Shown here: positions 357-35,746 of the stretch, piece by piece
Layout of the letters: each line of letters begins with the position of its first letter
How positions within the stretch are numbered: the first letter of the stretch is position 1
Assembly: GCA_947627375.1 (NCBI GenBank)
Contig: CANQVR010000001.1
Span: 1-49,124 of the forward strand
Reading direction: 5' to 3'
Length of the DNA stretch: 49,124 nt
Source of the DNA: an uncultured Bacilli bacterium
GTDB taxonomy: Bacteria > Bacillota_I > Bacilli_A > RF39 > UBA660
The notes under the pieces: model-generated
Database searches by the model: none
What the model was told of the DNA's origin: nothing
What the model saw: the letters and a program-made list of their open reading frames with translations, nothing else
Made by a program: the position numbers and the translations under genes

Positions 357-374
357 TGGTGCCTAAGGCCGGAC
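357..374. repeat. Prophage att core, left copy (orphan 3' end of tRNA-Leu)
   Basis: TGGTGCCTAAGGCCGGAC is identical to 35227..35244, the 3' end of the intact tRNA-Leu. Identity stops on both sides of the 18 bp. Confidence 0.9.
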
Positions 375-3103: not shown

Positions 3104-3511
3104 TTATTTTTTTGTATATTCTGCAACAATATAAAATGTTTCTAAAATATTATTAGCATACGCCTTTTGTTCTATTCCTATTTGCGTAGAAGATATGTAT
3201 AACATTATATCTACGTCACTTGTTGTTGGATAAGGAAGCGGAAACCAAAAAGTGGTTGGCGCAGGTTTGCAAAATCCATACAACTTAATAGGAACATCAA
3301 AATCAGATATGTTATGATTAATATAATATTTATTATTACTGAATTGCGGATTCTTAAAAGTAAAAACTTTTCTATAAATATCTTTATCGTCAACCCACTT
3401 TTGTCCTGTTTTTATTTCTTCGCTTATAGAAAATTTACCCGAATTCTCATATCTAGGAATTCTTGGATTTAATATTTCTCCTGCTTTATTTTTCAATACA
3501 TTTAATGCCAT
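3104..3511 (-). CDS. Paralog C of the triplicated small-protein cassette (candidate receptor-binding/fibre-tip protein)
   Basis: The N-terminus MALNVLKNKAGEILNPRIPRYE is shared with 3539..3949 and 3974..4366. The C-terminal ~110 aa are unrelated. Confidence 0.7.
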   Translation of the reverse strand: MALNVLKNKAGEILNPRIPRYENSGKFSISEEIKTGQKWVDDKDIYRKVFTFKNPQFSNNKYYINHNISDFDVPIKLYGFCKPAPTTFWFPLPYPTTSDVDIMLYISSTQIGIEQKAYANNILETFYIVAEYTKK

Positions 3512-3538
3512 ATTATCGGCTTATATTTTTCTCTTTTT

Positions 3539-3949
3539 TTAAGAAATATGATTTTTTAATTTTATACCGTAAACGCCTGTTAGGTGTCCAGTTCCAAAGG
3601 CTGCCTTGAATATATTACTTATATTTATTGAAGTGTCAGTATCAAAATATAGCTCAATAGTAATATAAGCACTTGCTTGTTCCATATAACATAAATCTAT
3701 CATTTGAGTTGATACAATCATAGTTTGTCTTATGAAATGAAGCTCCCCTTTTTCAACTATTGTAGGAGTGTTTGACGCACTTATTTCTATAGCAATTATG
3801 TCATAATTTCTTATACTATCTTTTAAATTAATTTTTCCAGTAGTTGTTTGATTGCCACTCCATAATTCATATATTCCATGTTTTTCATATCTAGGAATTC
3901 TTGGATTTAATATATTTCCTAACTTGTCTTTCAATACATTTAATGCCAT
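3539..3949 (-). CDS. Paralog B of the triplicated small-protein cassette
   Basis: The N-terminus is MALNVLKDKLGNILNPRIPRYEK. It shares 21-nt and 29-nt identical DNA blocks with paralog C at the 5' end. Confidence 0.7.
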   Translation of the reverse strand: MALNVLKDKLGNILNPRIPRYEKHGIYELWSGNQTTTGKINLKDSIRNYDIIAIEISASNTPTIVEKGELHFIRQTMIVSTQMIDLCYMEQASAYITIELYFDTDTSINISNIFKAAFGTGHLTGVYGIKLKNHIS

Positions 3950-3973
3950 AATTATTCATTATCGGCTATATGC

Positions 3974-4366
3974 TTATGGTATAGGTACTAATTTAACTAT
4001 AATGCATCTTGCATGTTCTCCACCTGAATTTGATAAAGTCCTAGCAAATGTATAACTTATATTTTTTTTACATTTCCAAACACCTCTTGCAATAAGAGGT
4101 CTACTTGCTGTATTACCACCCGCTTGTATATTGGTGAAAGAGAATATTTCCTCAGCATCTCCTACAGTATTTACTATATTAATTCTATTATCTCCTCCAT
4201 TGTTTCCCCAAGTAGCGCAATCACACATTATTTCTGCATAACAATTGAATTTTGGTGTGAAAGTGATACTTTCATTAGTAGACGTTATATATTCAATCGG
4301 CTTTTCATACCTTGGGATATGTGGGTTTAAAATATTTCCTAACTTGTCTTTTAGTACGTTACTCAT
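3974..4366 (-). CDS. Paralog A of the triplicated small-protein cassette
   Basis: The N-terminus is MSNVLKDKLGNILNPHIPRYEK. The SD GTGAGGT lies 7 nt upstream of the ATG at 4366; the track start at 4372 is too close to the SD. Confidence 0.7.
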   Translation of the reverse strand: MSNVLKDKLGNILNPHIPRYEKPIEYITSTNESITFTPKFNCYAEIMCDCATWGNNGGDNRINIVNTVGDAEEIFSFTNIQAGGNTASRPLIARGVWKCKKNISYTFARTLSNSGGEHARCIIVKLVPIP

Positions 4367-4448
4367 AAACATACCTCACTTTTAAAAGAAGAGAAAAACT
4401 ATTTTTAAGCCTTTCCCTCCTTTCTTGAGGAGTTAGTCGATAATACGA

Positions 4449-6281: not shown

Positions 6282-8345
6282 TTAGATTTCCTCCTCTATT
6301 CCAGTTATCCAAGTTTGATTGCCAACTTTCATTACCAATAATCCTGATATCTGAGCTATACCTTTAACTTGCAAATCATTTGTAATTATTCCTTTATCCG
6401 TAAATTCACTTATAACTTTATTTGTATTTTTATTAAGTATTCTAGTTCCATCAGCGTCTGCTCTAAAATATGTATTCATTGAACTTGATTCTATTTGAAT
6501 ACCTTTACCTATTTGAACAGTATCGGTAGTTGTTTCATTTATGCTATGACAATATGGTTGTAATACATAACCAGGATTACCCATTAAATTACATATATAA
6601 CAACTTGCATCACTATCACTGTCAAAAGTAATTGTAAGAGTATTATCTTTTACTTCTATTGTCCTTGAAAAATCATAGTAATCACCAAAAGCTTCCTCAT
6701 ACTCTTCATCAAAATAGTAAATATTATCTTCTTCCCAAATAACTGGCTCATCTTCATAATCAATTCTATATTTATCATTATCTAAAAATAGATCGTATTT
6801 AACACCATTGATTGTTACTGAGGTATTGGATAAAAATTTTAATTTTTTATAAAGAAAACCAATTGTATATATACCATTTTTTAAGTTTGTCACAACTTGA
6901 GTATGTTTACCATTGTTGAGTAACCAACAACTCATTTCTCCTGTTACCATTTGAATATTAGTGTTTGTATAAGGTTCTGCTGTTGTATCGTCCCAATAGT
7001 CAAGTCCAAAAAGTCCAATAGAATTCATAAATATATTGTTACCGGAAGTAGATTTAATAGTAAATTCTGAACCAGTTATATTTTGTCTTAAATTAAATAC
7101 TTCTTCTGATATTAATTGCCTATTTCCATCCTCATCTATATAATACTTATTATCTTCTACTTGCGTAGTTATATCATCTACTGTCTGAGTTACATTACTT
7201 AGATTTTCTCGAGTAGCACTTACATCAGTTACTACTCCTTCTATAACTTGATCTTGTTTGTTAACTCTTATTTCAGTATTTCTTACTTCTTTAGCAAGTG
7301 GACTCTTATATTGATATCGTGACTGTGTTTTTGTTTCAGCACTAGATTTAACAGTTTCTTTTATTCCACCATCAACTTGTAAAGAATAATTCAATACAAT
7401 AGTATCGAATTCCTGTTCTTCATTATTCCTTATAGTTACAATATCACCAATTTCATACCAACCATGACCTTCTACACTTAAATCACTAGGATGAAATTTA
7501 AAGCCATGTAATCCATCATATATTTGTTTAATTACGTCTTCTCTTTTTGCATCTAAAAATTGGTTATTATCAATTCTAAATTCAGTAAGACCGTTTTCTT
7601 TAATACTTTCTTCATCTTTCTCAAAGATATCTTCTCCAACTACTGGATCACGACCTAAAATCACATAGTTAATTTCACCATATAATTCTTCTATTTTAAA
7701 TGTTTTTAGATTATTATAAGTTAAAACCTCTAAACTTTCTTTTTTTATTGGATTAAAATAAACTTTATCATCTTGACCGATTATACACATAGAACATGTG
7801 ACTTCTGCTATTTGAGTTAATATATCACGATACGTTGTATCAGTTATATTTTCCCATAGTTCTCTATCTACGGTTATATCTCCATTTAACAAAGTTTCGT
7901 TTCCAAGTTCTAAGTTACATGCTTCGCATATTTTTTTAGTATAAGAAAATATATCAATTGGATATTCCATTTCTATAACTTCATAATTAATCATTGAGTT
8001 AATCATCTTATCATATCCAATTATTTTAGTCGTTTCTTTATCTTCTGAAGTAGATGTTTCGGTTATTAAAAATGAACCATAATCAATATACTCAAACTCA
8101 TTATCTACTGTTCTTACTCCTACAAAAACTTTAACCCACTTATCAAGTAAAATTTCACTATTTAAATATGATACTTCTAGTTTTCTCATTGCTGTTTTAC
8201 AAATAGTTGTTTCTGCACTTAATTTTAAATCTATTAGATAATTGCTAGAAGATATTTTTGTACCATCATCAAGTAATAAATATGCATCCAATTCTTTAAC
8301 TGGTTTTGTCATTGCTTCTTTAAATTTATCACTTATATTAATCAT
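6282..8345 (-). CDS. Tail-associated baseplate hub protein (Tal / prophage-tail endopeptidase-family position)
   Basis: 687-aa ORF, two genes after the tape measure, with an N-terminus typical of phage minor structural proteins. Confidence 0.55.
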   Translation of the reverse strand: MINISDKFKEAMTKPVKELDAYLLLDDGTKISSSNYLIDLKLSAETTICKTAMRKLEVSYLNSEILLDKWVKVFVGVRTVDNEFEYIDYGSFLITETSTSEDKETTKIIGYDKMINSMINYEVIEMEYPIDIFSYTKKICEACNLELGNETLLNGDITVDRELWENITDTTYRDILTQIAEVTCSMCIIGQDDKVYFNPIKKESLEVLTYNNLKTFKIEELYGEINYVILGRDPVVGEDIFEKDEESIKENGLTEFRIDNNQFLDAKREDVIKQIYDGLHGFKFHPSDLSVEGHGWYEIGDIVTIRNNEEQEFDTIVLNYSLQVDGGIKETVKSSAETKTQSRYQYKSPLAKEVRNTEIRVNKQDQVIEGVVTDVSATRENLSNVTQTVDDITTQVEDNKYYIDEDGNRQLISEEVFNLRQNITGSEFTIKSTSGNNIFMNSIGLFGLDYWDDTTAEPYTNTNIQMVTGEMSCWLLNNGKHTQVVTNLKNGIYTIGFLYKKLKFLSNTSVTINGVKYDLFLDNDKYRIDYEDEPVIWEEDNIYYFDEEYEEAFGDYYDFSRTIEVKDNTLTITFDSDSDASCYICNLMGNPGYVLQPYCHSINETTTDTVQIGKGIQIESSSMNTYFRADADGTRILNKNTNKVISEFTDKGIITNDLQVKGIAQISGLLVMKVGNQTWITGIEEEI

Positions 8346-8347
8346 AT

Positions 8348-8722
8348 CTAATAGCTCCTTTTTGAAACAGGTACTAAACTAACTGACATTTTTTTATAAA
8401 GTCCTCTATGTTTATCTAATATATCGGGCTCATAATCACTAGCATAATATTGAGCTATTGTTGTTCCATGTACTCTTACATCAAAAAACTCGACTGTAAA
8501 ATATGCTTGGTCGAGTAATTGTGAAATAAGTGACATTTCATCTTCAGTAGTAATGCCTATTTCTAAACTAATTTTAGGAAAGATACCGATGAGGGTAGCT
8601 CTTACATCTCCATTCATATTTCTATCAGCATCTTTCCATAATTTATTACGTCCAACTTTGTATGTAACTAATTTTGGTATTTTAACACCATTAATTTTTA
8701 GTAAGTCTCCGCTATATATCAT
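8348..8722 (-). CDS. Small tail component in the distal-tail-protein position
   Basis: 124-aa ORF whose start overlaps the tape measure stop (ATGA). Synteny is the only evidence. Confidence 0.45.
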   Translation of the reverse strand: MIYSGDLLKINGVKIPKLVTYKVGRNKLWKDADRNMNGDVRATLIGIFPKISLEIGITTEDEMSLISQLLDQAYFTVEFFDVRVHGTTIAQYYASDYEPDILDKHRGLYKKMSVSLVPVSKRSY

Positions 8723-11172
8723 AGATTAAATGTCACCTCCCCATTGGTTTCAAATAATTTTTTATTTGTACCGTCTATTACCTTATCAATAAGAGTATCA
8801 TCGCCAACATTGATAGTAATATGTTGAGGTGAATCATTATTTCCAGTATTTATTTTTTCAGCTAAATCATCCATCCAACTTGTATTTCTTTCAAGCGGAA
8901 TTACTGCTTCTTTACCAGCCTCACCAATAATTGCAGACGTCGGTTTATCTACAACTCCACCTTCTGCTAATTTAGGAATTTTTGGTATATTAATACCTTT
9001 TCCTCCAACACCAGGTACCCAATCCGGTACCTTAATATGATTTAATCCTGCAATAAAAGAATTTATAGCATCTATTATTACATTAATAGGGAATTTAGCT
9101 AATCCAATTAAAGCATTAAACACACCTCCGAATATATCTTTAATTCCATTCCATGCTTTACTCCAATTACCAGTAAATACTCCAGTAATATAGTCAACCA
9201 AACCACCAAGAGTTTGGAAAATACCTCCTACAGTATCGTAGATAACTGCCAATATACTTCCTAAAACTCCAATAACTAAATTGCTTAACATTGACCATGC
9301 TGGTGATAGTGTGTCTAATAAATAAGATACAATTGGTTGTATGAATTTATTGTATATTTCTAAAGCACCATTAACTAATTTACCTACAAAATCTATGACA
9401 TTATCTATCATACTTTTTAAATGTTCATCCCAAAGCCAAGATAAAGTCTCTAAAAATGGAGTAACAATTGGTTCTAACACATCATCCCAAATTTTTTGAA
9501 ATAATTCTATTGTTTTAACGCAGAATTCTCCTATATTGTCAACAAGTGGTTTACCATATTCGTTCCACTTTTCAACTAACATTCCAGTGAAATCTGCCCA
9601 TATATGTGTGATTATTTGTAAATATGGATCAATTGCATCCTGCCATATAGAATTAAATACTCCACTTATTCCATCTATAATTTGTGGACCCCAAGTATTT
9701 ATTCCTTCTGCCACATCAGTCCATATATTCGTAAATAATGTAGATATATTAGTAAGAATAGTAAAAACATTATCTTGTATGTTTGTCCACGTCATACTCA
9801 TGTTGTTGAATAAATCCGTTCCTAATCTTATTGCTAAATCTTTTACAAAATTAAATTGAGCTTCCAATAACTTAACATAAGCTTGAACAGGTTCACTATT
9901 CCAGATGTCTTTTAAAACGTTACCAACACCTTTAAAGACACCTTTTAAATATTCTGCTATTTCATCTGCTTTGGACTTGGTATTGTCTAGTCCAGTATCA
10001 AAACCACTTAAATCCATGTCTCCAATACCAGTGCTACCGCCACCAGAACCACCGCCTGATCCACTATCATCATTATTAGCTTCGTTTAAAACATTCATTT
10101 CATCAAAAGAAGCAAGTCCATTTAATTCTTTTTTTAGTTTTTTAGCTGAACCAGTAGCTTTGTCTAATCCTCCGGCTGTTGTTCCTCCTGCTGTACTTCC
10201 TAAATTAGCAACTGATTTTTTTACACTATCTACGTTCTTCTTCGTTTTCATACCAAATAAACTTGCAACTGAATTTACTGCCCATACACATGCTTTAACA
10301 AATCCAGCAATGTATGGAATCACTGCATTTATAACTCTTGCAATTCCTTGAAAAAAACTTGCGATATTAGAACGACCTATTGCATTTATAATTTCAGCTA
10401 TTCCTCTAGTAAATGCTGTCTTCATGTTAGTAATTGATGTCCCTATACCACCGGTAGAATTAAAAGCTTGTTCTTCAAAAGATTGAAAACCATTTACTCC
10501 CTCATGATTAAGTTCTACTATAGTTTTCATAAAGTCATTCATAGATACTTTTCCATTACGAAGTTGTTCTCCTAATTGATCAGCACTAACATATCCCATA
10601 GCTTGAGCTACTTGTTTTAATTGACCTGGCATTGCTTGTTGTAAGCTTCTCCATTCCATCATATCCGGTTTTCCTTTTGCATAAGCTTGAGATAATTGCT
10701 CAAGCGCTGATTGTTGTACTTGTGCTGACATACCACCAGCTAAAACTGCATTATTTAAAGCAAGAAACATTTCCGTACTTGCTTTTACATTACCATTCGC
10801 ACTTGTGAATTGTTGTACTGATGCTGCTGCACTATCAAGAGTTGTAGGTAATCCTGTTAATTTATCACTAAGTCTATTTATAGAAGCTTCTGCATCTTCA
10901 CTTCCTACTCCTAAATTAGACATTACATTAGTAAAATTATTAAGTATATCTACTCTAGATACTGCTCCATCTAGACTTCCCGAAATCATTTGTATTCCTT
11001 TGCTTAATAATCCTGTTACAACGTTAGCTTTTAAAAATGAACTAAACATGCTACTACCTGATTTATTAGCTTTGGTTTGTAGTCCTTGGATGTCGCCTTG
11101 CACTTTCTTCATTTCACTACGTATACTATCCGTATTGGCTGTTATTAAGACTTGTAATTCATCTATTGTCAT
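8719..11172 (-). CDS. Tail tape measure protein
   Basis: 817 aa, the largest phage ORF. It has helical and Gly-rich segments (GSGGGSGGGSTG) and W/F-periodic repeats, and follows the G/GT chaperone. Confidence 0.85.
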   Translation of the reverse strand: MTIDELQVLITANTDSIRSEMKKVQGDIQGLQTKANKSGSSMFSSFLKANVVTGLLSKGIQMISGSLDGAVSRVDILNNFTNVMSNLGVGSEDAEASINRLSDKLTGLPTTLDSAAASVQQFTSANGNVKASTEMFLALNNAVLAGGMSAQVQQSALEQLSQAYAKGKPDMMEWRSLQQAMPGQLKQVAQAMGYVSADQLGEQLRNGKVSMNDFMKTIVELNHEGVNGFQSFEEQAFNSTGGIGTSITNMKTAFTRGIAEIINAIGRSNIASFFQGIARVINAVIPYIAGFVKACVWAVNSVASLFGMKTKKNVDSVKKSVANLGSTAGGTTAGGLDKATGSAKKLKKELNGLASFDEMNVLNEANNDDSGSGGGSGGGSTGIGDMDLSGFDTGLDNTKSKADEIAEYLKGVFKGVGNVLKDIWNSEPVQAYVKLLEAQFNFVKDLAIRLGTDLFNNMSMTWTNIQDNVFTILTNISTLFTNIWTDVAEGINTWGPQIIDGISGVFNSIWQDAIDPYLQIITHIWADFTGMLVEKWNEYGKPLVDNIGEFCVKTIELFQKIWDDVLEPIVTPFLETLSWLWDEHLKSMIDNVIDFVGKLVNGALEIYNKFIQPIVSYLLDTLSPAWSMLSNLVIGVLGSILAVIYDTVGGIFQTLGGLVDYITGVFTGNWSKAWNGIKDIFGGVFNALIGLAKFPINVIIDAINSFIAGLNHIKVPDWVPGVGGKGINIPKIPKLAEGGVVDKPTSAIIGEAGKEAVIPLERNTSWMDDLAEKINTGNNDSPQHITINVGDDTLIDKVIDGTNKKLFETNGEVTFNL

Positions 11173-11842
11173 TTTTTAATAACACCTCCTAACAAAATCG
11201 TATTTCTCATTGCTATACTCTCTAAATCTTCACTTGTATGAGAAATAGATTTTCTTTCTTGTTCTTCTAAAAATGGAATTTTGGGATATTTTTTTGGATC
11301 GTTAAAAGCATAAGCTATATATTTACCTAGCATATAATTAAAATTGTCCTTTTCTCTTATTCTTTCTTTTTCTCTTTTTAGAAAGACTTTTTGGTGTTTT
11401 GCATATAATTTTGGAGTTAAAGTCCAAAAATAACCAATATCTAACCCAATAAATATTGCCTCTTCTTCTAAATCTCTCCATTTATCGCCAAAATAAATTA
11501 TAGATTTTCCATTTTTTCTTGTGCTTCGGTTAGACGTTTGTTCTTCATCGCACGTATTTTCTCCACATCTAACCTCCTTGATAAAAAACCATCTTTTATC
11601 AGAGCTTCAGTAATATCTAAAAGCAAGTCATCTTTTTCTCCATCTTTTAAATAATCGTCTATTACATTCATTGCAACATTCTTACTTACTCCATGGACTC
11701 CATTTTCATCAATAAGTCCTTTTTGAATAAATAAAGATAGCATACTAATGCTCGAATCAGATACACAATTTTCAATTGGTACTTTTCTCATTTGTTCTAT
11801 TTCATCTACTTTTGTAGCATTATATTTTAAATTTAATTCCAT
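11169..11842 (-). CDS. Tail assembly chaperone frameshift product (GT-like, -1 at GAAAAAAT, 11511..11518)
   Basis: A -1 frame of about 115 codons is open from the A-run to a TGA overlapping the tape measure ATG (ATGA). It has no start codon or SD of its own. Confidence 0.6.
11498..11842 (-). CDS. Tail assembly chaperone (G-like)
   Basis: 114-aa acidic ORF between the major tail and tape measure genes. An A6 run lies near its 3' end. Confidence 0.7.
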   Translation of the reverse strand: MELNLKYNATKVDEIEQMRKVPIENCVSDSSISMLSLFIQKGLIDENGVHGVSKNVAMNVIDDYLKDGEKDDLLLDITEALIKDGFLSRRLDVEKIRAMKNKRLTEAQEKMENL

Positions 11843-11857
11843 AATCTTTCTCCTTTT

Positions 11858-11894
11858 CTTTATAAAAAAATAAAGGGAGGTATCTCAACCTCCC
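11858..11894 (-). terminator. Intrinsic terminator/attenuator after the major tail gene
   Basis: The minus strand reads GGGAGGT-tgagat-ACCTCCC followed by TTTATTTTTTTAT. Confidence 0.6.
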
Positions 11895-11905
11895 AGTAAT
11901 TAGTC

Positions 11906-12361
11906 TTATTCACTTGCTGATGGTGTATATACTGGTATACCACTTACACGTAAGCTTGCACTAAACCCTACTAATCCATCAGGTGTTGCTTCTGCTGTTT
12001 TAAATGATTTAACAAAAGCCTTTAATTCCCATTTAGCACCACTTGGGAAAGTAACTGTCCAAGCTTCAGTAGATCCTGATTTAATTAAAGCCATCATTTT
12101 TGCAACAGTTTGTTCATCGTTAGTCTTTTTGATATAACCACCAAGACTAACTTCTCCTGCATCAATATCACCTTGCATGAATTCTTTAGCTCTATCGGGA
12201 CTATCTAAAGTAGTAACATCTTGTTCATCAGCTTCAACACCAATTTCACCAATTGATGTTAAACTTCCAACTTCCCAGTCTTCACCCTCTTGACCACTTT
12301 TAGTTTTGGTTAATTTTGTACCAATAGCTTTTATATCGGTATCTAAACTTTTATTTTCCAT
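11906..12361 (-). CDS. Major tail protein
   Basis: 151-aa ORF directly upstream of the chaperone pair, followed by a terminator hairpin. Its size and position are typical of phi13-type major tail proteins. Confidence 0.7.
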   Translation of the reverse strand: MENKSLDTDIKAIGTKLTKTKSGQEGEDWEVGSLTSIGEIGVEADEQDVTTLDSPDRAKEFMQGDIDAGEVSLGGYIKKTNDEQTVAKMMALIKSGSTEAWTVTFPSGAKWELKAFVKSFKTAEATPDGLVGFSASLRVSGIPVYTPSASE

Positions 12362-12382
12362 TAGTATTCTCCTCTCTTATCC

Positions 12383-12709
12383 TTATTTAATAAATCTTGT
12401 ATTAATATGAAAAACATTCCCTATATTAGGAATGTCTGCACTAAAACTTAATTTATAGAGATTTTCTCTCATAATGCTTTCTACTTCATTTAATACTTTG
12501 CTAGCTGTAACACTGTCCTCAGCCCATATATCAATGATAACTTCAATTGATTGATTAATAATTTCATTACTTAAATCAAGATCAACACTATTATCACTAA
12601 CATAAAAAATGATGGCTGGTAATTCGTTAAAAGTATCCGGTTGTATTTGTGATACATAATAATCTAAACTTTTCAGTATGTTATATATATCTTCTTTTGG
12701 TAAATACAT
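12383..12709 (-). CDS. Tail completion / neck protein (gp11-like position)
   Basis: 108-aa ORF between the HK97 gp10-like gene and the major tail gene. Confidence 0.5.
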   Translation of the reverse strand: MYLPKEDIYNILKSLDYYVSQIQPDTFNELPAIIFYVSDNSVDLDLSNEIINQSIEVIIDIWAEDSVTASKVLNEVESIMRENLYKLSFSADIPNIGNVFHINTRFIK

Positions 12710-12712
12710 TTT

Positions 12713-13189
12713 TTATCCTCCTTTAATACTTGATCGTACATTTTCTTTTAAGCTATCTTTAAACATTTGCTTTATACGTCTTTCATTGTTTTTAAGTGCT
12801 GGATACATAAATGGTTGGGCTTTTTGTCCACGTGTAACATAAAAAGTTTCTCCTCCATCGGGTGTATATACCCATGGGGTATTACGATATGATAGATTTA
12901 AACCTTTTACTTTATATGGATAACTACCACTACCTTTTATTCCAGTACCAAACTCAACGTATGGTGCATATTCTAAACTTGTATAGACTCTTCCTTTAGT
13001 GCTTTTATTATTTTTTTCAACACTCATGTGAATAGAGTTTTTTAAAGCACCTGTTTCACTCGGCGCTAAAAGTTTAGCTTGTGCTTCAACCAATGAAACT
13101 GCTTTTTTCATTGTTTCTTCAACATTTAAATTACCAAGCTTATCTAATTTTTTTATTAAACGATCAGTATTTTTTATAGTTACTGCCAT
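12713..13189 (-). CDS. HK97 gp10-family head-tail joining protein
   Basis: 158 aa. The pattern ...LDKLGN...AKLLAPSETGALKNSIH... matches the HK97 gp10 family as I remember it, and the synteny fits. Confidence 0.6.
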   Translation of the reverse strand: MAVTIKNTDRLIKKLDKLGNLNVEETMKKAVSLVEAQAKLLAPSETGALKNSIHMSVEKNNKSTKGRVYTSLEYAPYVEFGTGIKGSGSYPYKVKGLNLSYRNTPWVYTPDGGETFYVTRGQKAQPFMYPALKNNERRIKQMFKDSLKENVRSSIKGG

Positions 13190-13518
13190 TTTGTACCTAC
13201 AACCAACAAGTGACTATCACTAGGTATTCTATCTACTACTTTATAAATTATTTCTTGATATTGAATTATGTCATTTACTTTAACATTCTCAAAATCAGTA
13301 GTAATAGATATATCTATCTCATAATCTAAACCATAGTCTTCTTGAATTCTTTTACAACTAGAAAAACTTACATTACCTTTAAAAGTATCTTTTACATCAT
13401 AGCCCTTTGTAGTTACTCCTCCTTCTTTATCAATAGTACTTTTTTGTTCTAATATTGATATTTCTTTATCGTAAAATACACTAGCTATTTTGTTCTTCAT
13501 TGTCTTTGGAATGTACAA
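13180..13518 (-). CDS. Head closure / head-tail adaptor protein
   Basis: 112 aa. The TTG start is preceded by AGGAGGG at 6 nt, and the synteny fits. Confidence 0.55.
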   Translation of the reverse strand: MYIPKTMKNKIASVFYDKEISILEQKSTIDKEGGVTTKGYDVKDTFKGNVSFSSCKRIQEDYGLDYEIDISITTDFENVKVNDIIQYQEIIYKVVDRIPSDSHLLVVGTKWQ

Positions 13519-13909
13519 CGTTGACCCTCCTATAACGTGCTAATAAAGAAGAAAAACCAGTGAACAATTCTTCATCACTGGCTGTTGTAAAATATTTTTT
13601 TACTTCATTACTATAAGATATAGACTGACCATTGTCACTTATTGATACAATGTTCTCTTCTATTCCTGTATTATCTTCCTTACTTATTTCTACCTCTTTA
13701 AGACACTTTTTAAGTCCAGTGTTAATTACCTTTGCTAGTACACGGTATAATTCTTTAGGAATATCATCTCTTCTCAAATATAACATTACTCTATCTAGCA
13801 TTTCTTCTATAACAAAATCAATTAAACCTGTATTATTGTTTTCTATTTCATCAATATTAGTATTTATAATTTTTAAGTATTCTTTTATTTTTTCTATTGC
13901 TTCTTCCAT
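13481..13909 (-). CDS. Head-tail connector (gp6-like) protein
   Basis: 142-aa helical acidic protein, the first gene after the capsid region. Confidence 0.55.
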   Translation of the reverse strand: MEEAIEKIKEYLKIINTNIDEIENNNTGLIDFVIEEMLDRVMLYLRRDDIPKELYRVLAKVINTGLKKCLKEVEISKEDNTGIEENIVSISDNGQSISYSNEVKKYFTTASDEELFTGFSSLLARYRRVNVVHSKDNEEQNS

Positions 13910-13930
13910 ATAAATACCACCTCAACTTTT

Positions 13931-14305
13931 CTATTCACTAGGACTTAATGTTAGTCCTGTTAAATCCAACACTTTATTTGTTTCACCATTTTTCAAAGTG
14001 ATTTTTTGAGTGTTGGAATGTAATTGAACTACTAATATTCCATCTTCATCAAAAGTACCTTTTCCTTTTGTTTTAGCTTCGGATAATTCCCAACTAACAG
14101 TATCACCTTTAGTTGCTTCATCGCATTTAATAGCTAAGAAGTTTCCTTTAGCATTTCTTGAAAACTTAGGAAAACTCTCAACATATTTAGATGTACCAAT
14201 TAATTTATTCTCTTGAATTTGAATATTGTCTTGTAGTTCAGTTACATTTATCCCAAGAACTTCGCCCTCGGGTAAAGTTACTGTTACCTTTTTAGAGGGC
14301 TCGCT
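13931..14305 (-). CDS. Capsid C-terminal extension ORF, probably decoded by a +1 frameshift from the major capsid gene
   Basis: 124 sense codons with no ATG anywhere, no SD, and a 5' overlap with the capsid gene. It lies in the +1 frame relative to the capsid, and the junction is CCC-TAG. Confidence 0.55.
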   Translation of the reverse strand, partial: SEPSKKVTVTLPEGEVLGINVTELQDNIQIQENKLIGTSKYVESFPKFSRNAKGNFLAIKCDEATKGDTVSWELSEAKTKGKGTFDEDGILVVQLHSNTQKITLKNGETNKVLDLTGLTLSPSE

Positions 14306-15146
14306 AGGGTGTTGCTGTAATATCAGCAAATTTTATTAAATCAGGCATAACTGCTTTTGTTCCTTTTGAGAAAAAGAACTCTAAAGCTATATCATTTGAT
14401 AGTGGGATTTTTTCTGCTCCATATTCATCAGTTGTAACTAATTGAGCTACTGCTCCATCAATCATACAAATAGCATCTTTAGTTTGTCTATGATTACTAT
14501 AAATTCTAACTCTATGGAACATTTCATTAGTTAATCCATTTAAACTGTTAGGAACACTATCAATATAGTTTTCTATTTCTCCATAAATTTCAGGCTTAAC
14601 TGTAAGAACTAACATATCACGATCTACACCATCAACCCAATCATTAGTTGTTGTTTCAACTGATTGAATAAGTGCTTCTATTTTATCTTGAATAAGAGTT
14701 TTTGTTTCAGGGATAGAATATGAAGTACCTTCACTTTCAGCCTTAGTAAAGAACTCTTTATCTAGATATGCTATGACCTTTTTAGCATGATCTCCTTTTC
14801 TTTTTTCAGCCATACCAGCTAAACCATATAATTTAATATCCTTTTTAGCAATCTCTTCTACTATTTCTTTATCAGTATCTACATTGATTGTAACCTTACC
14901 AGTATTTCTTAATTTATCTCCTTTTGCATTTGTACGAGCTGTTCCTAAGTCATTAACTGTAGCATTTTTAAATCTATCGATCTCTACTGAACCAGTAGTT
15001 GGATCACCACTATAATTTTTGTTTTTAATTTGCTCTGATATTGCACCTTTTTGTATTAATTCAAGAACTTCTCCATAAGTTTCTGCTAATTGATCCTTTG
15101 TTTCAGAAGTATCAGTATAAATGCTTAATGCATCTTGTCTTGCCAT
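14304..15146 (-). CDS. Major capsid protein
   Basis: 280-aa ORF immediately after the scaffold gene, with a strong SD. Size and position are typical of a capsid gene. Confidence 0.8.
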   Translation of the reverse strand: MARQDALSIYTDTSETKDQLAETYGEVLELIQKGAISEQIKNKNYSGDPTTGSVEIDRFKNATVNDLGTARTNAKGDKLRNTGKVTINVDTDKEIVEEIAKKDIKLYGLAGMAEKRKGDHAKKVIAYLDKEFFTKAESEGTSYSIPETKTLIQDKIEALIQSVETTTNDWVDGVDRDMLVLTVKPEIYGEIENYIDSVPNSLNGLTNEMFHRVRIYSNHRQTKDAICMIDGAVAQLVTTDEYGAEKIPLSNDIALEFFFSKGTKAVMPDLIKFADITATP

Positions 15147-15176
15147 ATTATCACTCTCCTTTTATTTTTTTTGGCA

Positions 15177-15707
15177 TTAAAAAGCCGACACGATTGTTTT
15201 TTTCTTGTCGGTTTCTTCTTTCTTATTAGAATTAGAAAAGTCTTTTGGAGGATTACCTTTTAATTTATCAGTAACCCCGTTTTCTACTGATTTGTTATAA
15301 GTTTCTGCTAGTTTCTCTACATTTTCCTTGGTTTTAGTTTCATCTAAATCAACTACAAAATCCACTAAATTAATAGGAATATTTTTTTCTTGTAGCATTT
15401 CTTGAGCTTCAAGTCTTCTTTCACGTAATGTAATATTATCTTCACGTTCCCTAAGCTCTTTTTCTCGCTTGCTCTTAGCTTCTTTTTCTCTTTCTTCTTC
15501 CGTTAACTTAGCTTGTCGTCTTTCTTCTGCAATTGCGTCTTGCACTGCCTTAGAAATAGCTTGTTTGTTTTTAGTTTTTTCTTCATCCAAACGTGTAGCA
15601 ACAATCTTGTTAACGTCTTCTTGAGAAAATGTTTTTCCACCTTTTTCCTCACTATTAGTTGTAGCTGGTGTCTCTACAACTGGAGTATTAGTTTTGGTAT
15701 TTTCCAT
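15177..15707 (-). CDS. Scaffolding protein
   Basis: About 176 aa, highly charged coiled coil (EERRQAKLTEEEREKEAKSKREKELRERE), upstream of the capsid gene. The start at 15707 has better SD spacing than 15716. Confidence 0.75.
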   Translation of the reverse strand: MENTKTNTPVVETPATTNSEEKGGKTFSQEDVNKIVATRLDEEKTKNKQAISKAVQDAIAEERRQAKLTEEEREKEAKSKREKELREREDNITLRERRLEAQEMLQEKNIPINLVDFVVDLDETKTKENVEKLAETYNKSVENGVTDKLKGNPPKDFSNSNKKEETDKKKTIVSAF

Positions 15708-22171: not shown

Positions 22172-22501
22172 CTACTCCTTTGGCATTTCATAAATTACTG
22201 TTTTTGATAATGGTAATTGATATATGTGGTCACCAGTATAATCATTATAATTTTGCTTATTAACTGTATAAAATTGATAGCTTGTATTTATTTTATTTTG
22301 TATTTCAGCTAATACTTCTAATGCTCTTTCTTCTGATTTGTAAATACCTAGGTTTAGAAAATTGTATCCATAAGTATTTTGAAAATTAATAGAACATATC
22401 GCATAACTTAATTCTTCTATATTACTGATATACTTTCTAATTTCTAATTGTTCTACTTTAATAAGTCTTTTTTTATCTTGACTTCTTATCCATAAATCCA
22501 T
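22172..22501 (-). CDS. Hypothetical protein
   Basis: 109-aa ORF with GGAGGT upstream. Confidence 0.55.
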   Translation of the reverse strand: MDLWIRSQDKKRLIKVEQLEIRKYISNIEELSYAICSINFQNTYGYNFLNLGIYKSEERALEVLAEIQNKINTSYQFYTVNKQNYNDYTGDHIYQLPLSKTVIYEMPKE

Positions 22502-22524: not shown

Positions 22525-22559
22525 GTTTCCCCTCGGACGTTAAGCCCGAGGAGGGAAAC
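22525..22559 (-). other. GC-rich imperfect hairpin with no U-tract, just 3' of the lectin-like gene
   Basis: GTTTCCCCTCGG-acgttaagc-CCGAGGAGGGAAAC forms 12 bp with two bulges. It is unusually GC-rich for this genome. Confidence 0.7.
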
Positions 22560-22574
22560 ATAATACTCTTTTAT

Positions 22575-23171
22575 TTATACACTCTCGATAGCAGATTTGA
22601 GAACTCGTATAACGGGGCGGACCCCACGGTAGGTGTTGTACGCGCTCGGATTGCCCACATAGCCGCTGGAGTGGACAGCGAACACGCCGTTCGAGCTGTC
22701 GGAATACGGAGACATTGTCCAGTAACCATAATCTCCACTACATTTACGAATTTCCTCAGGTAGTTTTTCTACTTCTTCTTTAGTAATTAATCTTACATAA
22801 TCTACTGTTTCAATTCCATTTAAATTAGTGGTCATAGGCCTTAACTTATTTCTATCAAATTCACTTAAAAATTCAGTATTTAAAACTGCTCTTATAATGC
22901 TATCTCTCCATTTATTGTCATGAAGACTAAATATTACGTCTTTATCTCCATCTAAATATTCACTATCAAAAAAGTCATTAATTTCATCTACTGACATTTT
23001 ATCTTTCATAAATAAAGTTGTTGTATCATTATCCTCATCAATAACATACCAATCATAATTACTAAACTCTACAACTGGATATTCACTTTCTTTATATTTT
23101 TTTAATTCTTTTCTTGCTTTTTTTAATTCTTCTTCTGCTTTCTTAATTCTTTCTTCTATTTTTTCTTTCAT
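22575..23171 (-). CDS. Coiled-coil plus DUF6273/DUF1566-like (C-type-lectin-like) domain protein with an anomalous GC-rich 3' block
   Basis: 198 aa. The motifs W-YVID, NKWRDSIIRAVLNTEF, YWTMSP and GVRPVIRV fit the family pattern as I remember it. The last ~40 codons switch to GC-rich codon usage. Confidence 0.7.
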   Translation of the reverse strand: MKEKIEERIKKAEEELKKARKELKKYKESEYPVVEFSNYDWYVIDEDNDTTTLFMKDKMSVDEINDFFDSEYLDGDKDVIFSLHDNKWRDSIIRAVLNTEFLSEFDRNKLRPMTTNLNGIETVDYVRLITKEEVEKLPEEIRKCSGDYGYWTMSPYSDSSNGVFAVHSSGYVGNPSAYNTYRGVRPVIRVLKSAIESV

Positions 23172-29320: not shown

Positions 29321-29569
29321 CTAGCCTAATTTCTTTCTTTTTCGATTTGAGGCATCTAAAGATATTCTTCTTAACTCCTCTTTATTGATCCATTCAACGT
29401 AATTTTTAAGCATTTCCCCATACGAATTAATTTGATAATTTACAATTCTCACATATAATTCACTAACATTTACGTCTCTAAATTTACTTTGCATTTCTTT
29501 TATAAAAGATTTTCTATTTTTAATAACTTTATCTTTGTACAATTCAAATATTAATTCTTCTGCAAACAT
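29321..29569 (-). CDS. Hypothetical protein
   Basis: 82-aa ORF. Confidence 0.5.
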   Translation of the reverse strand: MFAEELIFELYKDKVIKNRKSFIKEMQSKFRDVNVSELYVRIVNYQINSYGEMLKNYVEWINKEELRRISLDASNRKRKKLG

Positions 29570-30249
29570 ACATCCCCCTCCAATTCTTCCAAAATATTTT
29601 TCATTTCTTCTCTTTCTTCTTTTGTTGTTTGTTCGTTTTGTGAATCCTTGTTAAACCATTTAGGAAGTTTTTGTTTAGTCTCTTTCTGATTCAAATAACT
29701 TTCAAATTTAGTGCCAAATAATGTTTCAGGTCTTAAATATTTTTCTAAATCAGTACCTTTCCATTCGGCAGTTTTTTTATCAATAACAACTATGAAGTCG
29801 TCGAGTTTGTAACCCTCGTTCAATCGTGCTTTGATTTTATTAATCGTTGATACAGTAGTGTTCTTATAATTAGTTCCTACTTTTTTATTTAAATATTCTA
29901 TTATTTTTTTTACATATACATTAACATTAGACATAGACATATACATCTTTGATGTGTTACCCGTTCGGTTACCCTTTTGGTTACCTGTTTGGTTACCCGT
30001 TTGGTTATCCATTCGGTTACTCATTCGGTTACTCGTTTGGTTTCTTTTTAAACTTTTTGTTGATTGATTTTTACTTTTATCTAAAGGTCTTTTTAAATTT
30101 ATAAACACTTTATTTTCTCTATCAGTTAAATTAGGAATCTTGTCTTCAAACATATACTTAAAAATTGATAAGAGTAAGTTCTTTTGTTCTTCTTCATTTA
30201 ACAAAGTTATTAAATCGTAATATTCTTCATAAATCGTAAAACTTTTCAT
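29551..30249 (-). CDS. Phage replisome organizer (DnaD-like; conserved phage C-terminal domain)
   Basis: The C-terminus VKKIIEYLNKKVGTNYK...IKARLNEGYKLDDF..VID.K..EW.G....KYLRPETLFG.KFE.YLNQ matches the family as I remember it. The central linker is made of N-Q/R-T/M-G/S repeats. Confidence 0.65.
   Translation of the reverse strand: MKSFTIYEEYYDLITLLNEEEQKNLLLSIFKYMFEDKIPNLTDRENKVFINLKRPLDKSKNQSTKSLKRNQTSNRMSNRMDNQTGNQTGNQKGNRTGNTSKMYMSMSNVNVYVKKIIEYLNKKVGTNYKNTTVSTINKIKARLNEGYKLDDFIVVIDKKTAEWKGTDLEKYLRPETLFGTKFESYLNQKETKQKLPKWFNKDSQNEQTTKEEREEMKNILEELEGDVCLQKN
29955..30050. repeat. 8 x 12-bp tandem repeat (GGTTACNNNTTN): candidate replication-origin iterons
   Basis: Units start at 29955, 29967, 29979, 29991, 30003, 30015, 30027 and 30039. 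The array lies inside the replisome organizer gene, and an AT-rich tract follows at 30050..30130. Confidence 0.8.
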
Positions 30250-33884: not shown

Positions 33885-33983
33885 CAGTACACAAAATCAA
33901 ATAGTCCAGCAAGACAATTCTTTTTTGTGCAATTTTATTATATCAAAAATTAGCCAATTTAACAATAATTGGAGGTAAAAAAA

Positions 33984-35153
33984 ATGAATTTAAAAGTATA
34001 TGAAAAAACAAGATATCAAAATATCTATAGACATAAAAAAAATGGAAATTATGTTATACAAATTAGTAATCCTAAAACAAGCATATCAAGAATGCCGAAT
34101 GGTAATAAAATTTGGAACAAAGATGATGCAATAAAAATTAGAGATAACAAAGAAAGCAAGCTCTTAAAACAGTCACAACTTTCTTCTAAGGTACTTTTTG
34201 GTACTGCATGGGACAAATATATCGAATGGTGTAAAAACGACCAAAATCAGAAATATAGTACCTATAATAAAAAAGAAAAAATATATAACAAACATTTAAG
34301 AATCTTGAAAAACAAAATAGTTTCTAAAATAACTGAAGATTATATGAAAAGATTTATAAGTGGATTAAGCACTACTGATAAGCAAAAAAATGAAGTGTTA
34401 CAAAAAGCATTGTTACCATTTTTTAATTGGTGTATGATTGAAGAAAAGATTATTTTAATCAATCCAGTTATACATATAAAAAAAATAAGAGTACAAAAAC
34501 CTAAAATAGATTACTGGACAATTGATGAAGTTACACAATTTTTTACATTCATTAATGAATATATTAATTCCGATATCGATATAAAACAAAAAGAAGTGGC
34601 ATATAGAGTTAAAATGTACTCTTCTATTACATTTGCGTTAGGAGATAGAATCGGAGAAACTAGAGCACTGTTTTTTGATTCTTTCGATGATATTAAAGAA
34701 ATAACTAATATAAATCATTCTATAGACTATAATCCTAACAATAAAATATTTATAACATCAACTAAAACTGTCGGATCTGAAAGAATTGTAGATACAAGTA
34801 AAAAGATTTTGCAAGATATAAAAGACTATAAAAATTTTTTAATACAAGATTTAGGCTATCCAGTTAAAAACGACTCACTAATATTTTTTAATTATTCTAC
34901 TAATAAACCTTTTTCAGATACCCTATTACGAAATAATTTTTATAAATTTTGTAAACTAGCAAAAGTACCAAAAATAACACCGTACGCTTTAAGACATACT
35001 CACGTTGCTACTTTAATGGCAGAAGGAAAGCCTTTATATCAAATAAGTCCAAGAATTGGACATACAAGATATGATACAACTGTAACTAAATACGGACATT
35101 TAGAAAGAACGATTAGAAAGGAGATAGCAAATACTACCGATAAGTACTTTTAA
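33984..35153 (+). CDS. int: Tyrosine integrase
   Basis: It has R (GDRIGETRAL), HxxR (ALRHTHVAT) and H...Y (IGHTRYDTTVTKYGH). GGAGGT lies 8 nt upstream of the ATG at 33984. It abuts att and tRNA-Leu. Confidence 0.9.
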   Translation: MNLKVYEKTRYQNIYRHKKNGNYVIQISNPKTSISRMPNGNKIWNKDDAIKIRDNKESKLLKQSQLSSKVLFGTAWDKYIEWCKNDQNQKYSTYNKKEKIYNKHLRILKNKIVSKITEDYMKRFISGLSTTDKQKNEVLQKALLPFFNWCMIEEKIILINPVIHIKKIRVQKPKIDYWTIDEVTQFFTFINEYINSDIDIKQKEVAYRVKMYSSITFALGDRIGETRALFFDSFDDIKEITNINHSIDYNPNNKIFITSTKTVGSERIVDTSKKILQDIKDYKNFLIQDLGYPVKNDSLIFFNYSTNKPFSDTLLRNNFYKFCKLAKVPKITPYALRHTHVATLMAEGKPLYQISPRIGHTRYDTTVTKYGHLERTIRKEIANTTDKYF

Positions 35154-35226: not shown

Positions 35227-35244
35227 TGGTGCCTAAGGCCGGAC
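35227..35244. repeat. Prophage att core, right copy (within the intact tRNA-Leu)
   Basis: Identical to 357..374. Confidence 0.9.
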
Positions 35245-35315
35245 TTGAACCGGCACGGGCTTTAACACCCGCAGGATTTTAAGTCCTGTGCGTCTACCTA
35301 TTCCGCCACTCAGGC
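35227..35315 (-). tRNA. tRNA-Leu (anticodon UAA), long variable arm; integration target
   Basis: Reverse complement GCCTGAGTGGCGGAATAGGTAGACGCACAGGA-CTTAAAA-TCCTG...GGTTCAAGTCCGGCCTTAGGCACCA. Confidence 0.95.
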
Positions 35316-35318
35316 ACA

Positions 35319-35394
35319 TGGTGATCTGTATGAGATTCGAACTCATGACCCTTTGATTAAAAGTCAAATGCTCTACCGACTGAGCTAACAGATC
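35319..35394 (-). tRNA. tRNA-Lys (anticodon UUU)
   Basis: Reverse complement GATCTGTTAGCTCAGTCGGTAGAGCATTTGA-CTTTTAA-TCAAA...GTTCGAATCTCATACAGATCACCA. Confidence 0.95.
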
Positions 35395-35402
35395 ATAATA
35401 AA

Positions 35403-35477
35403 TGGCTGCCTCGGTTAGATTCGAACTAACGCATGTCAGAGTCAAAGTCTGATGCCTTACCACTTGGCTACGAGGCA
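35403..35477 (-). tRNA. tRNA-Gln (anticodon UUG)
   Basis: Reverse complement TGCCTCGTAGCCAAGTGGTAAGGCATCAGA-CTTTGAC-TCTGA...GTTCGAATCTAACCGAGGCAGCCA. Confidence 0.95.
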
Positions 35478-35492
35478 ATAAATAAAATTAAG

Positions 35493-35577
35493 TGGTGGAG
35501 AGAGATGGATTCGAACCATCGAACTCAAAGAGAACAGATTTACAGTCTGTCGCGTTTAGCCACTTCGCTACCTCTCC
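35493..35577 (-). tRNA. tRNA-Tyr (anticodon GUA), long variable arm
   Basis: Reverse complement GGAGAGGTAGCGAAGTGGCTAAACGCGACAGA-CTGTAAA-TCTGT...GGTTCGAATCCATCTCTCTCCACCA. Confidence 0.95.
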
Positions 35578-35584
35578 AAAAAAA

Positions 35585-35660
35585 TGGTGCCGAAAGTAGG
35601 ACTTGAACCCACAACCTACTGATTACAAATCAGTTGCTCTACCAGTTGAGCTATTTCGGC
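35585..35660 (-). tRNA. tRNA-Thr (anticodon UGU)
   Basis: Reverse complement GCCGAAATAGCTCAACTGGTAGAGCAACTGA-TTTGTAA-TCAGT...GGTTCAAGTCCTACTTTCGGCACCA. Confidence 0.95.
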
Positions 35661-35669
35661 ACTTAAATA

Positions 35670-35746
35670 TGGTGGGCGATATAGGACTCGAACCTGTGAC
35701 CCCCTGCTTGTAAGGCAGGTGCTCTAACCAACTGAGCTAATCGCCC
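35670..35746 (-). tRNA. tRNA-Val (anticodon UAC)
   Basis: Reverse complement GGGCGATTAGCTCAGTTGGTTAGAGCACCTGC-CTTACAA-GCAGG...GGTTCGAGTCCTATATCGCCCACCA. Confidence 0.95.

Follow-up and report, generated by a model that had tools for sequence, protein, structure and literature searches.

This work concerns a stretch of 49,124 nucleotides from an uncultured Bacilli bacterium (contig CANQVR010000001.1, positions 1 to 49,124; the whole stretch is called the window below) and, within it, a prophage gene whose 3' end turns abruptly G+C-rich. This GC island is very probably the variable region (VR) of a target of a diversity-generating retroelement (DGR), whose reverse transcriptase (RT) and template come, or once came, in trans from outside the prophage. 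It is highly likely that adenine mutagenesis of the DGR type wrote the VR. The VR is an orphan, because the prophage is complete in the window yet contains neither an RT nor a template repeat (TR). It is either served in trans or quiescent, and the prophage alone cannot diversify it. A preliminary description of this DNA had proposed an orphan DGR-type VR, active in trans or fossil, and this proposal is now supported by hypervariability across the protein family, by adenine-patterned mismatches to TRs and by the RT- and TR-free complete prophage. The gene and its island are as follows.

22575..23171, minus strand: target gene of 198 aa, with an N-terminal helix (residues 2-27, a coiled-coil-like neck) and a DUF6273/C-type-lectin-like domain (open reading frame list, Pfam, AlphaFold2)
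Residues 154-187 of the 198-aa protein, minus strand: 34 island codons, encoding SPYSDSSNGVFAVHSSGYVGNPSAYNTYRGVRPV
22615..22711, minus strand: VR, CTCCGTATTCC...GGGGTCCGCCC, 97 nt, corresponding to the GC island and recognised by composition, codons, column pattern and adenine-biased mismatches

Composition of the island and fold of the target protein

The coding sequence (CDS) 22575..23171 is AT-rich up to about residue 153, followed by 34 G+C-rich codons dominated by NNC. A sliding-window calculation places the peak at 22613-22714, where 102 nt have a G+C content of 63.7%. This is the maximum of the entire 49 kb, exceeding both tRNA clusters, with a z of 6.6 against a non-tRNA background of 27.3% (sd 5.5%). 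The block at 22611-22712 has 62.7% G+C, in line with an earlier hand count of 64 in 102 nt between flanks below 30%. The NNC bias reported at the same time also holds, with 20 of the 34 codons in the block against 8 of 164 elsewhere in the CDS (Fisher p=2e-12). Adenine makes up 16% of the block and 44% of the remainder of the CDS.

Pfam assigns DUF6273 to residues 146-189 of the protein (E=2e-6, above the gathering score). The AlphaFold2 model (pLDDT 87) consists of the long N-terminal helix followed by a globular domain, and Foldseek matches it best to DUF6273 proteins of phages (lowest E=8e-7). Against the PDB, the DUF6273-containing IgA peptidase of Thomasclavelia ramosa is found first, followed by weak matches to the collectins CL-K1 and SP-D and to CD23, all three being proteins with a neck and a lectin domain. 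The VR part of the protein matches the PHROG 'Hoc-like head decoration'. The C-type-lectin-like scaffold suspected from the letters is therefore also predicted at the structural level, behind a coiled-coil neck. Published DGR targets include DUF6273, a C-lectin-like domain that carries the VR at the C-terminus (PMC10743442, PMC11792537, bioRxiv 10.1101/2024.10.15.618418), and in the window the VR likewise lies at the 3' end of the gene for this scaffold.

Hypervariability among homologues

The 198-aa protein has 47 homologues, all of them small phage proteins or C-terminal domains, and in their alignment SP....GVRPV is the sole strongly variable stretch. Among 13 natural variants of one lineage, identity is 95% outside this stretch and 54% inside, with variable columns of up to nine residues each being interleaved with invariant ones. 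On the DNA level, strictly conserved ATGTCGCCGTCCTACTTC and GGCTACGGCGTCCGCCCAGTTAT flank a mosaic of variable and invariant columns in six divergent phages. In the subfamily of the window (the window and loci L003, L020, L021 and L022), the core comprises 72 columns. Of these, 40 are variable (31 at codon positions 1 and 2), and the 32 invariant ones include three adenines only. Loci L008 and L009 differ by just six nucleotides, every one of which can be explained by an AAC, AAT or TAC template codon. As anticipated in the preliminary description, it is thus only particular columns of this very block that vary, for the most part at the first two codon positions. All nine relatives have the GC-enriched block on a background of 25-30% GC (49-61% in eight of them, a weaker 42% in L007). 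Hypervariability limited to template-adenine positions is seen family-wide, the window lineage itself being represented by one VR sequence (7 contigs).

Some individual loci of the family show further peculiarities. Locus L004 (IMGVR_UViG_3300029619_000274, ~6900-6995) has an in-frame TAG stop inside its VR (…SPSYFYS*GFACEF…), a product that random adenine mutagenesis would sometimes be expected to give. Locus L006 (IMGVR_UViG_3300006217_002168) carries two paralogous DUF6273 genes, at 8100-8714 and 9585-10274. The VR DNA of the two is much more similar than the remainder of the genes, pointing to a common template or to gene conversion. A match of 82/140 at position 8488 of L006 was considered as a TR and rejected, since it is the VR of the second paralogous target gene. 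Locus L031 (ENA ERZ4903442 contig_12591) has an orphan VR-like island at 11446-11553, with 59% GC in a 26% GC genome, in the gene of a DUF6273 protein of 763 aa, with DarT/NADAR toxin-antitoxin genes on its flanks; neither a TR nor an RT was found there within ±10 kb.

Template repeats in related Bacilli

The GTDB genome collection was scanned with the invariant frame CTCCGNATTCCNNC...CGCG. This gave the known VR of L003 and one new place, on contig CANRNO010000011.1 (locus L025), which belongs to a metagenome-assembled genome (MAG) of an uncultured Bacilli bacterium from a 'Lapin' sample. A syntenic contig of a second MAG, CANQHJ010000021.1 (locus L027), carries a similar arrangement. Both MAGs are from related gut bacteria, and the arrays are chromosomal.

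L025 (CANRNO010000011.1), 11660-15340: tandem TR array, 13 units of ~282 nt (12.8 copies according to Tandem Repeats Finder)
L027 (CANQHJ010000021.1), 13520-14940: tandem TR array, 5 units

In each unit of L025, an AAC-rich, non-coding copy of the VR frame runs up to GGGGTCCGCCC, and ACTCGATARTGTT follows. The array lies directly downstream of, and convergent with, a gene for a 1060-aa surface protein. The C-terminus of this protein is a VR of the same frame as that of the window, followed by a hairpin of the window type. Relative to the target gene, the array is inverted in L025 and in the same orientation in L027, with targets of ~1060-1088 aa. The L027 unit at 13919 and the adjacent VR differ by 12 substitutions, 12/12 of them at TR adenines and 0 elsewhere, and the two are a textbook TR/VR pair.

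The VRs were also compared with the consensus of the 13 L025 units, which has 27 A columns and 42 non-A columns. The VR of the window mismatches at 17/27 A columns and 7/42 non-A columns (p=1e-4), the VR of L020 at 13/27 and 2/42, and the VR next to the L025 array (P0048) at 14/27 and 2/42. The mismatches are A-biased in 6/6 VRs tested, with p=1e-4 to 1e-5, and the adenine content drops from 39% in the TRs to 20% in the VRs. The copy differing at adenines that the preliminary description had suggested looking for therefore exists in related genomes, most clearly in the 12/12 pair of L027.

These mismatches also bear on an explanation with no retroelement at all, namely that the island is a patch acquired horizontally from a high-GC homologue or that its composition is forced by amino-acid constraints of the lectin fold. 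The sharp compositional boundary is the only observation in its favour. The island occurs in every family member examined, all of them phages or genomes of 25-30% GC, and blastn and tblastn with the target gene against the INPHARED phage collection gave no match at the DNA or protein level. With up to nine amino acids per variable column, the fold does not dictate the residues, and A-specific mismatches are expected neither from transfer nor from selection. Both versions are considered extremely improbable and were rejected, as the island is family-wide in low-GC genomes and the adenine depletion of an AAC-rich template explains it.

Beyond the VR frame, the array units resemble a known template. 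In a blastn search of INPHARED, one TR unit matched the intergenic TR of phage nd12 (80% over 59 nt), whose immediate downstream neighbours are an RVT_1 reverse transcriptase and a DUF6273 'tentaclin' target, so the units are homologous to a canonical DGR template. RNAalifold on the 18 units predicts four main elements. In this prediction, the TR is enclosed by a long-range stem of GGTTRARTT (5' of the TR) with RAYTYAACC (3'). A second stem, TCGATA/TATCGA, frames an inner hairpin (TAAYTAY/RTARTTA), a small hairpin (GGGG/CCCA) sits where the TR ends, and the fourth element is a terminal AT-rich hairpin. In total, 59 pairs are predicted and 97.8% of the cells are paired. Nineteen pairs are changed on both sides, compared to 10.3±1.7 in column shuffles (0/500 reach 19) and 2-6 pairs in a control with partners slid by 1-3 columns. 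The units thus have what is expected of a template RNA: they are AAC-rich, non-coding and VR-homologous, with A-to-N differences and a structured spacer. They can be recognised by a covariance model of the post-TR RNA (R1) and by the motif GTCCGCCCACTCGATARTGT.

Several observations concern the surroundings of the arrays. The P0048 VR (L025, 11399 region) is mosaic-like with respect to units U04, U06, U09 and U10, with 5' AACCGTGTC, middle GTCTGGTCGG and 3' GGCGTGACC, each with A-to-N changes; successive partial retrohoming from different templates would fit this pattern. At 15551-16787 of L025, a gene of the Rpn-like recombination-nuclease type (HTH_Rpn_C) and a short paralogue adjoin the 13-unit array; no such gene lies beside the L027 array. 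In locus L026 (CANRNO010000005.1, the same MAG as L025), two large proteins of 1151 and 1207 aa have two VR-like GC blocks each, at 12185, 13373, 18598 and 19927, ending in GTCCGCCC and located beside type IV pilus-like genes (T2SSF, prepilin peptidase).

With arrays directly adjoining an expression gene (inverted in L025), a P0048 VR seemingly pieced together from several units, array contigs whose examined sequence has no RT and an Rpn-like recombination nuclease gene beside one array, another possibility might be RT-independent cassette conversion. The tandem units would then be silent donors recombining into the expression site and the island would be a conversion patch. However, such conversion is expected to copy faithfully, whereas nearly all differences of the VRs fall on adenines of the units (12/12 in L027), the hallmark of a DGR RT. 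Furthermore, the units are AAC-rich non-coding RNAs with covarying structure, they are homologous to the TR beside the RT of nd12, and the Rpn-like gene is absent beside the L027 array. Cassette conversion is therefore very unlikely, and DGR-type mutagenesis remains the preferred origin of the VR.

Boundary element and downstream hairpin

Two further elements accompany the VR.

22613..22625, minus strand: G/C run GGGGTCCGCCCCG, resembling an initiation of mutagenic homing (IMH) element and marking the end of VR/TR homology
22526..22558, minus strand: conserved GC hairpin TTTCCCTCCTCGGGC-TTAAC-GTCCGAGGGGAAA, 17 nt past the stop codon and without U-tract, a candidate DGR target-recognition hairpin

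The homology between the VR and the TR units stops right after GTCCGCCC, where the VR goes on as GTCCGCCC/CGTTATACGAGTT and the TR units as GTCCGCCC/ACTCGATARTGTT. The end GGGGTCCGCCC is common to the VRs and 17/18 TR units, the remaining unit having GGGGTTCGCCC. Both elements had been noticed before at slightly wider positions (22613..22628 for the run, 22525..22559 for the hairpin) and were found again here. The 76-nt hairpin region has a predicted energy of -22.3 kcal/mol (z=-3.2), and none of 200 shuffles is equally stable. Since the neighbouring gene on the same strand starts at 22501, the hairpin lies between two co-directional genes. The same hairpin is found 3' of the VR in L003, L020, L021 and L022 and in the chromosomal targets of L025 and L027, at a distance of ~56-100 nt from the G/C run across phage and chromosomal VRs. 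One pair shows a compensatory change from G-C to A-T (CTCGGGC..GTCCGAG versus CTCAGGC..GTCTGAG). The hairpin probably helps in target recognition. A second hairpin of the same design (GATTCCCTATTCGGGC..GTCCGAAAGGGAATC) is present at 13418-13452 of L027 and at the matching place of L025, between the terminator of the target gene and the first template unit.

Prophage and search for its partners

The limits of the prophage were defined by the following repeats.

357..374, no strand assigned: left att repeat TGGTGCCTAAGGCCGGAC, an 18-nt exact direct repeat with 35227-35244
35227..35244, no strand assigned: right att repeat, the 3' end of tRNA-Leu(taa), 18-nt exact repeat

Together with an integrase gene at 33969..35153, these repeats delimit a prophage of ~34.9 kb (~375-35226) that is entirely inside the window. 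Its insertion site is the 3' end of the tRNA-Leu(taa) gene, with a cluster of host tRNA genes on either side (4-352 and 35227-35746); these genes make up the remaining GC peaks of the window. Era and the sporulation protein YqfD are encoded in the host flank, which marks the host as a low-GC Firmicute. The target gene stands at the end of the early/replication module, between replication and packaging, with a small terminase gene ~1.7 kb downstream.

No TR was detected in the window, as the best ungapped sliding match of the VR (60/151) is noise and a repeat search of the window found no copy either. A scan of the window and L001-L009 for adenine-compatible sequences (A=A, C=A/C, G=A/G, T=A/T) found no TR candidate, and no TR-like copy was present within ±10 kb of eight homologues. 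The covariance model of the post-TR RNA retrieved only its 18 training units in 353 kb searched; with filters off, its best match in the window has 10.5 bits and an E of about 1. In IMG/VR, pattern scans for the TR of the window VR, the TR of L008/L009 and the conserved post-TR motif gave 0 matches. A plasmid collection had no match to the TR unit, and a metagenome scan gave 3 loci only. Rfam recognised nothing on the array and only tRNAs in the window.

For the RT, Pfam searches found no RVT_1 in window open reading frames (ORFs) of at least 290 aa outside 12.5-33 kb, and the precomputed Pfam annotation inside 12.5-33 kb contains no RT. Nor was an RT found on 22.8 of the 23.5 kb of CANQHJ010000021.1, on 21.5 of the 28.6 kb of CANRNO010000011.1, in unannotated ORFs adjoining the arrays (Pfam) or in the flanks of P0055. 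The lack of an RT and a TR in the window, as first reported from the letters, was thus confirmed; no Avd turned up in the window, where no search aimed at Avd was made.

Proposed mechanism and its weighing

The steps proposed here follow what is established for DGRs. The template RNA, AAC-rich and having the frame CTCCGNATTCC..GGCAATGTC..GGGGTCCGCCC, would be reverse-transcribed by a DGR RT, with misincorporation opposite template adenines. The cDNA would then replace the 97-nt VR, with the G/C run setting the 3' boundary and the downstream hairpin probably aiding target recognition. The non-A positions of the template (~77% G+C) would stay fixed, while the adenines (39% of the TR) would be scrambled to any base. 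With scrambled adenines on a G/C-rich frame, the adenine content of the VR would fall to 16-20% and its G+C content would rise, the NNC codons going back to AAC and AAT codons of the template. This explains the compositional island quantitatively.

The most likely source of the RT and template in trans would be a host-chromosomal DGR of the multi-TR-array type, as in the related uncultured Bacilli. The chances that a compatible DGR is present in the window host and still acts on the VR are judged as even. That such a host DGR has the tandem TR-array organisation is proposed tentatively. The link between arrays and window VR is suggested by the same frame, boundary element and hairpin and by A-biased mismatches, the arrays being located outside the window. 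It is conceivable, and again no more than tentatively proposed, that a temperate phage target without its own DGR plugs into a host DGR with 5-13 structured TRs, unlinked to the RT and located beside a surface-protein target. Because the G/C boundary element is common to all units, each of them could rewrite every VR compatible with it, whether on the chromosome or on a prophage. If true, a cassette-like combinatorial choice, giving mosaic VRs, would come on top of adenine mutagenesis, and host and prophage proteins would be diversified by the same machinery.

Several points weigh against this account of the island. The cognate TR of the window VR was found neither in the window nor in the 10 kb upstream of it nor in IMG/VR. 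A tblastn search with the nd12 DGR RT of the window and 32 other loci (432 kb in total) gave no match at E<=10, and the 10 kb upstream on the same contig contain no RT. Compared to the best single TR unit, the window VR still has 5 non-A mismatches in 69 nt (5-7 against the homologous TRs), the units being from other genomes. Its 3' part (ACC TAC CGT GGG) requires a unit with ACC AAC CGT GGG, a combination found in none of the 18 units, with its features occurring separately in U02, U07 and U09. The hairpin of the window lies ~56 nt past the G/C run, which is farther than in the paradigm of Bordetella phage BPP-1. Finally, the window protein recurs in identical form on 7 contigs from several samples. 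At 90% identity it clusters with no other protein, and a collection of 5.8 billion proteins contains no nearly identical VR variant of it. A VR variant of the window phage lineage has therefore not yet been seen.

Part of this would also be expected of a fossil VR, in which an ancestral DGR wrote the block, the phage lineage and its host have since been without a compatible RT and TR, and the segment is now a frozen coding sequence. The complete prophage contains no RT and no TR, nor do 59 kb of contig, the protein is the same on all 7 contigs, and there is a precedent in the literature for phages retaining DUF6273 targets without a DGR. Within the host genome, however, the search for partners covered these 59 kb, a minor part of the whole. 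Moreover, the cis elements are all intact (the frame is open, the G/C run is the same as in the TR units and the hairpin stem is preserved), the composition has not decayed toward the 27% background, and related lineages are clearly diversified in nature. A fossil is a possible but somewhat doubtful account. With the G/C boundary being that of the TR units and the hairpin being shared with chromosomal Bacilli targets, the evidence leans towards compatibility with a host system rather than decay.

Other features of the prophage

At 29956-30051, eight tandem 12-nt repeats (GTTACCCGTTTG and variants) lie inside ORF 29551..30249, which has DUF6291/Phg_2220_C replication-protein domains. These are probably iterons of the phage replication origin. 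At 3104-4372, between the tail genes and the holin/lysin genes, three adjacent paralogous ORFs (135, 136 and 132 aa) have a conserved stretch of ~59 nt at their 5' ends.

Comparison with known systems

As a DGR VR that is orphan or remote and lies on a DUF6273 target, the window feature belongs to a known kind. Phage DGRs with DUF6273 targets have been described in nd4 and nd12 ('tentaclins', with an Mtd-like target 2), in the Faecalibacterium prophages Lelie, CP11, Roos and Pioen, and in Toutatisvirus. The window has in common with them the DUF6273 target domain and the VR at its C-terminal end, and the TRs of the arrays in related Bacilli are AAC-rich like theirs. In Toutatisvirus, small single-domain targets lie far from the TR (17.5 kb), and some phages keep targets without a DGR. 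The prophage of the window differs from these phages in being without RT and TR throughout (no Avd turned up), in having its target gene between the replication and packaging modules, and in that matching TRs are only chromosomal and in other genomes.

As in the DGR of Bordetella phage BPP-1 with its mtd VR, the VR lies at the 3' end of a gene with a C-lectin fold and shows adenine-specific differences (PMC5758913). Also shared are a G/C-rich element (IMH) where TR/VR homology stops and a downstream GC hairpin, which in BPP-1 is described as a hairpin/cruciform (PMC5758913). In the window, however, ~56 nt separate the hairpin from the G/C run, the hairpin follows the stop codon, and no avd-TR-brt cassette is nearby.

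A short, sharp island of GC and NNC codons at the 3' end of a lectin-like gene in an AT-rich genome is the footprint of adenine mutagenesis, and it can flag DGR targets that are missed by RT-centred pipelines. Phage DGRs have been treated as self-contained in surveys so far. A fully equipped target with no DGR in a complete prophage implies either that DGRs can act across the boundary between host and prophage, or that targets outlive their DGRs.

Remote targets are known from cellular DGRs. In Treponema denticola and Legionella, targets more than 100 kb from the RT are served in trans, with multiple targets having one VR frame (Wu et al. 2018, PMC5758913). Pairing of such remote targets with phages was argued to be unexpected (Wu et al. 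2018, PMC5758913). The published remote targets of cellular DGRs are chromosomal and in the same cell, whereas that of the window is on a mobile prophage. In addition, the candidate donor here has many TRs, while the cellular DGRs with remote targets have one.

Literature full-text searches gave no description of tandem arrays of 5-13 structured TR units without RT on the examined contig sequence. What they did return were DGRs with two to six TRs, mentioned in computational work, and remote targets. The tandem TR arrays may therefore be a new DGR architecture. If functional, arrays of 13 and 5 units would amount to a multiplexed DGR, which bears on the diversity available per RT and on the engineering of programmable mutagenesis. 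Tandem non-coding donor units beside an expression site, together with a mosaic expression sequence, are also a feature of vlsE/vls in Borrelia and pilE/pilS in Neisseria. The donors in the arrays described here differ from vls and pilS in being AAC-rich structured RNAs, and the adenine-specific differences point to reverse transcription rather than to plain gene conversion.

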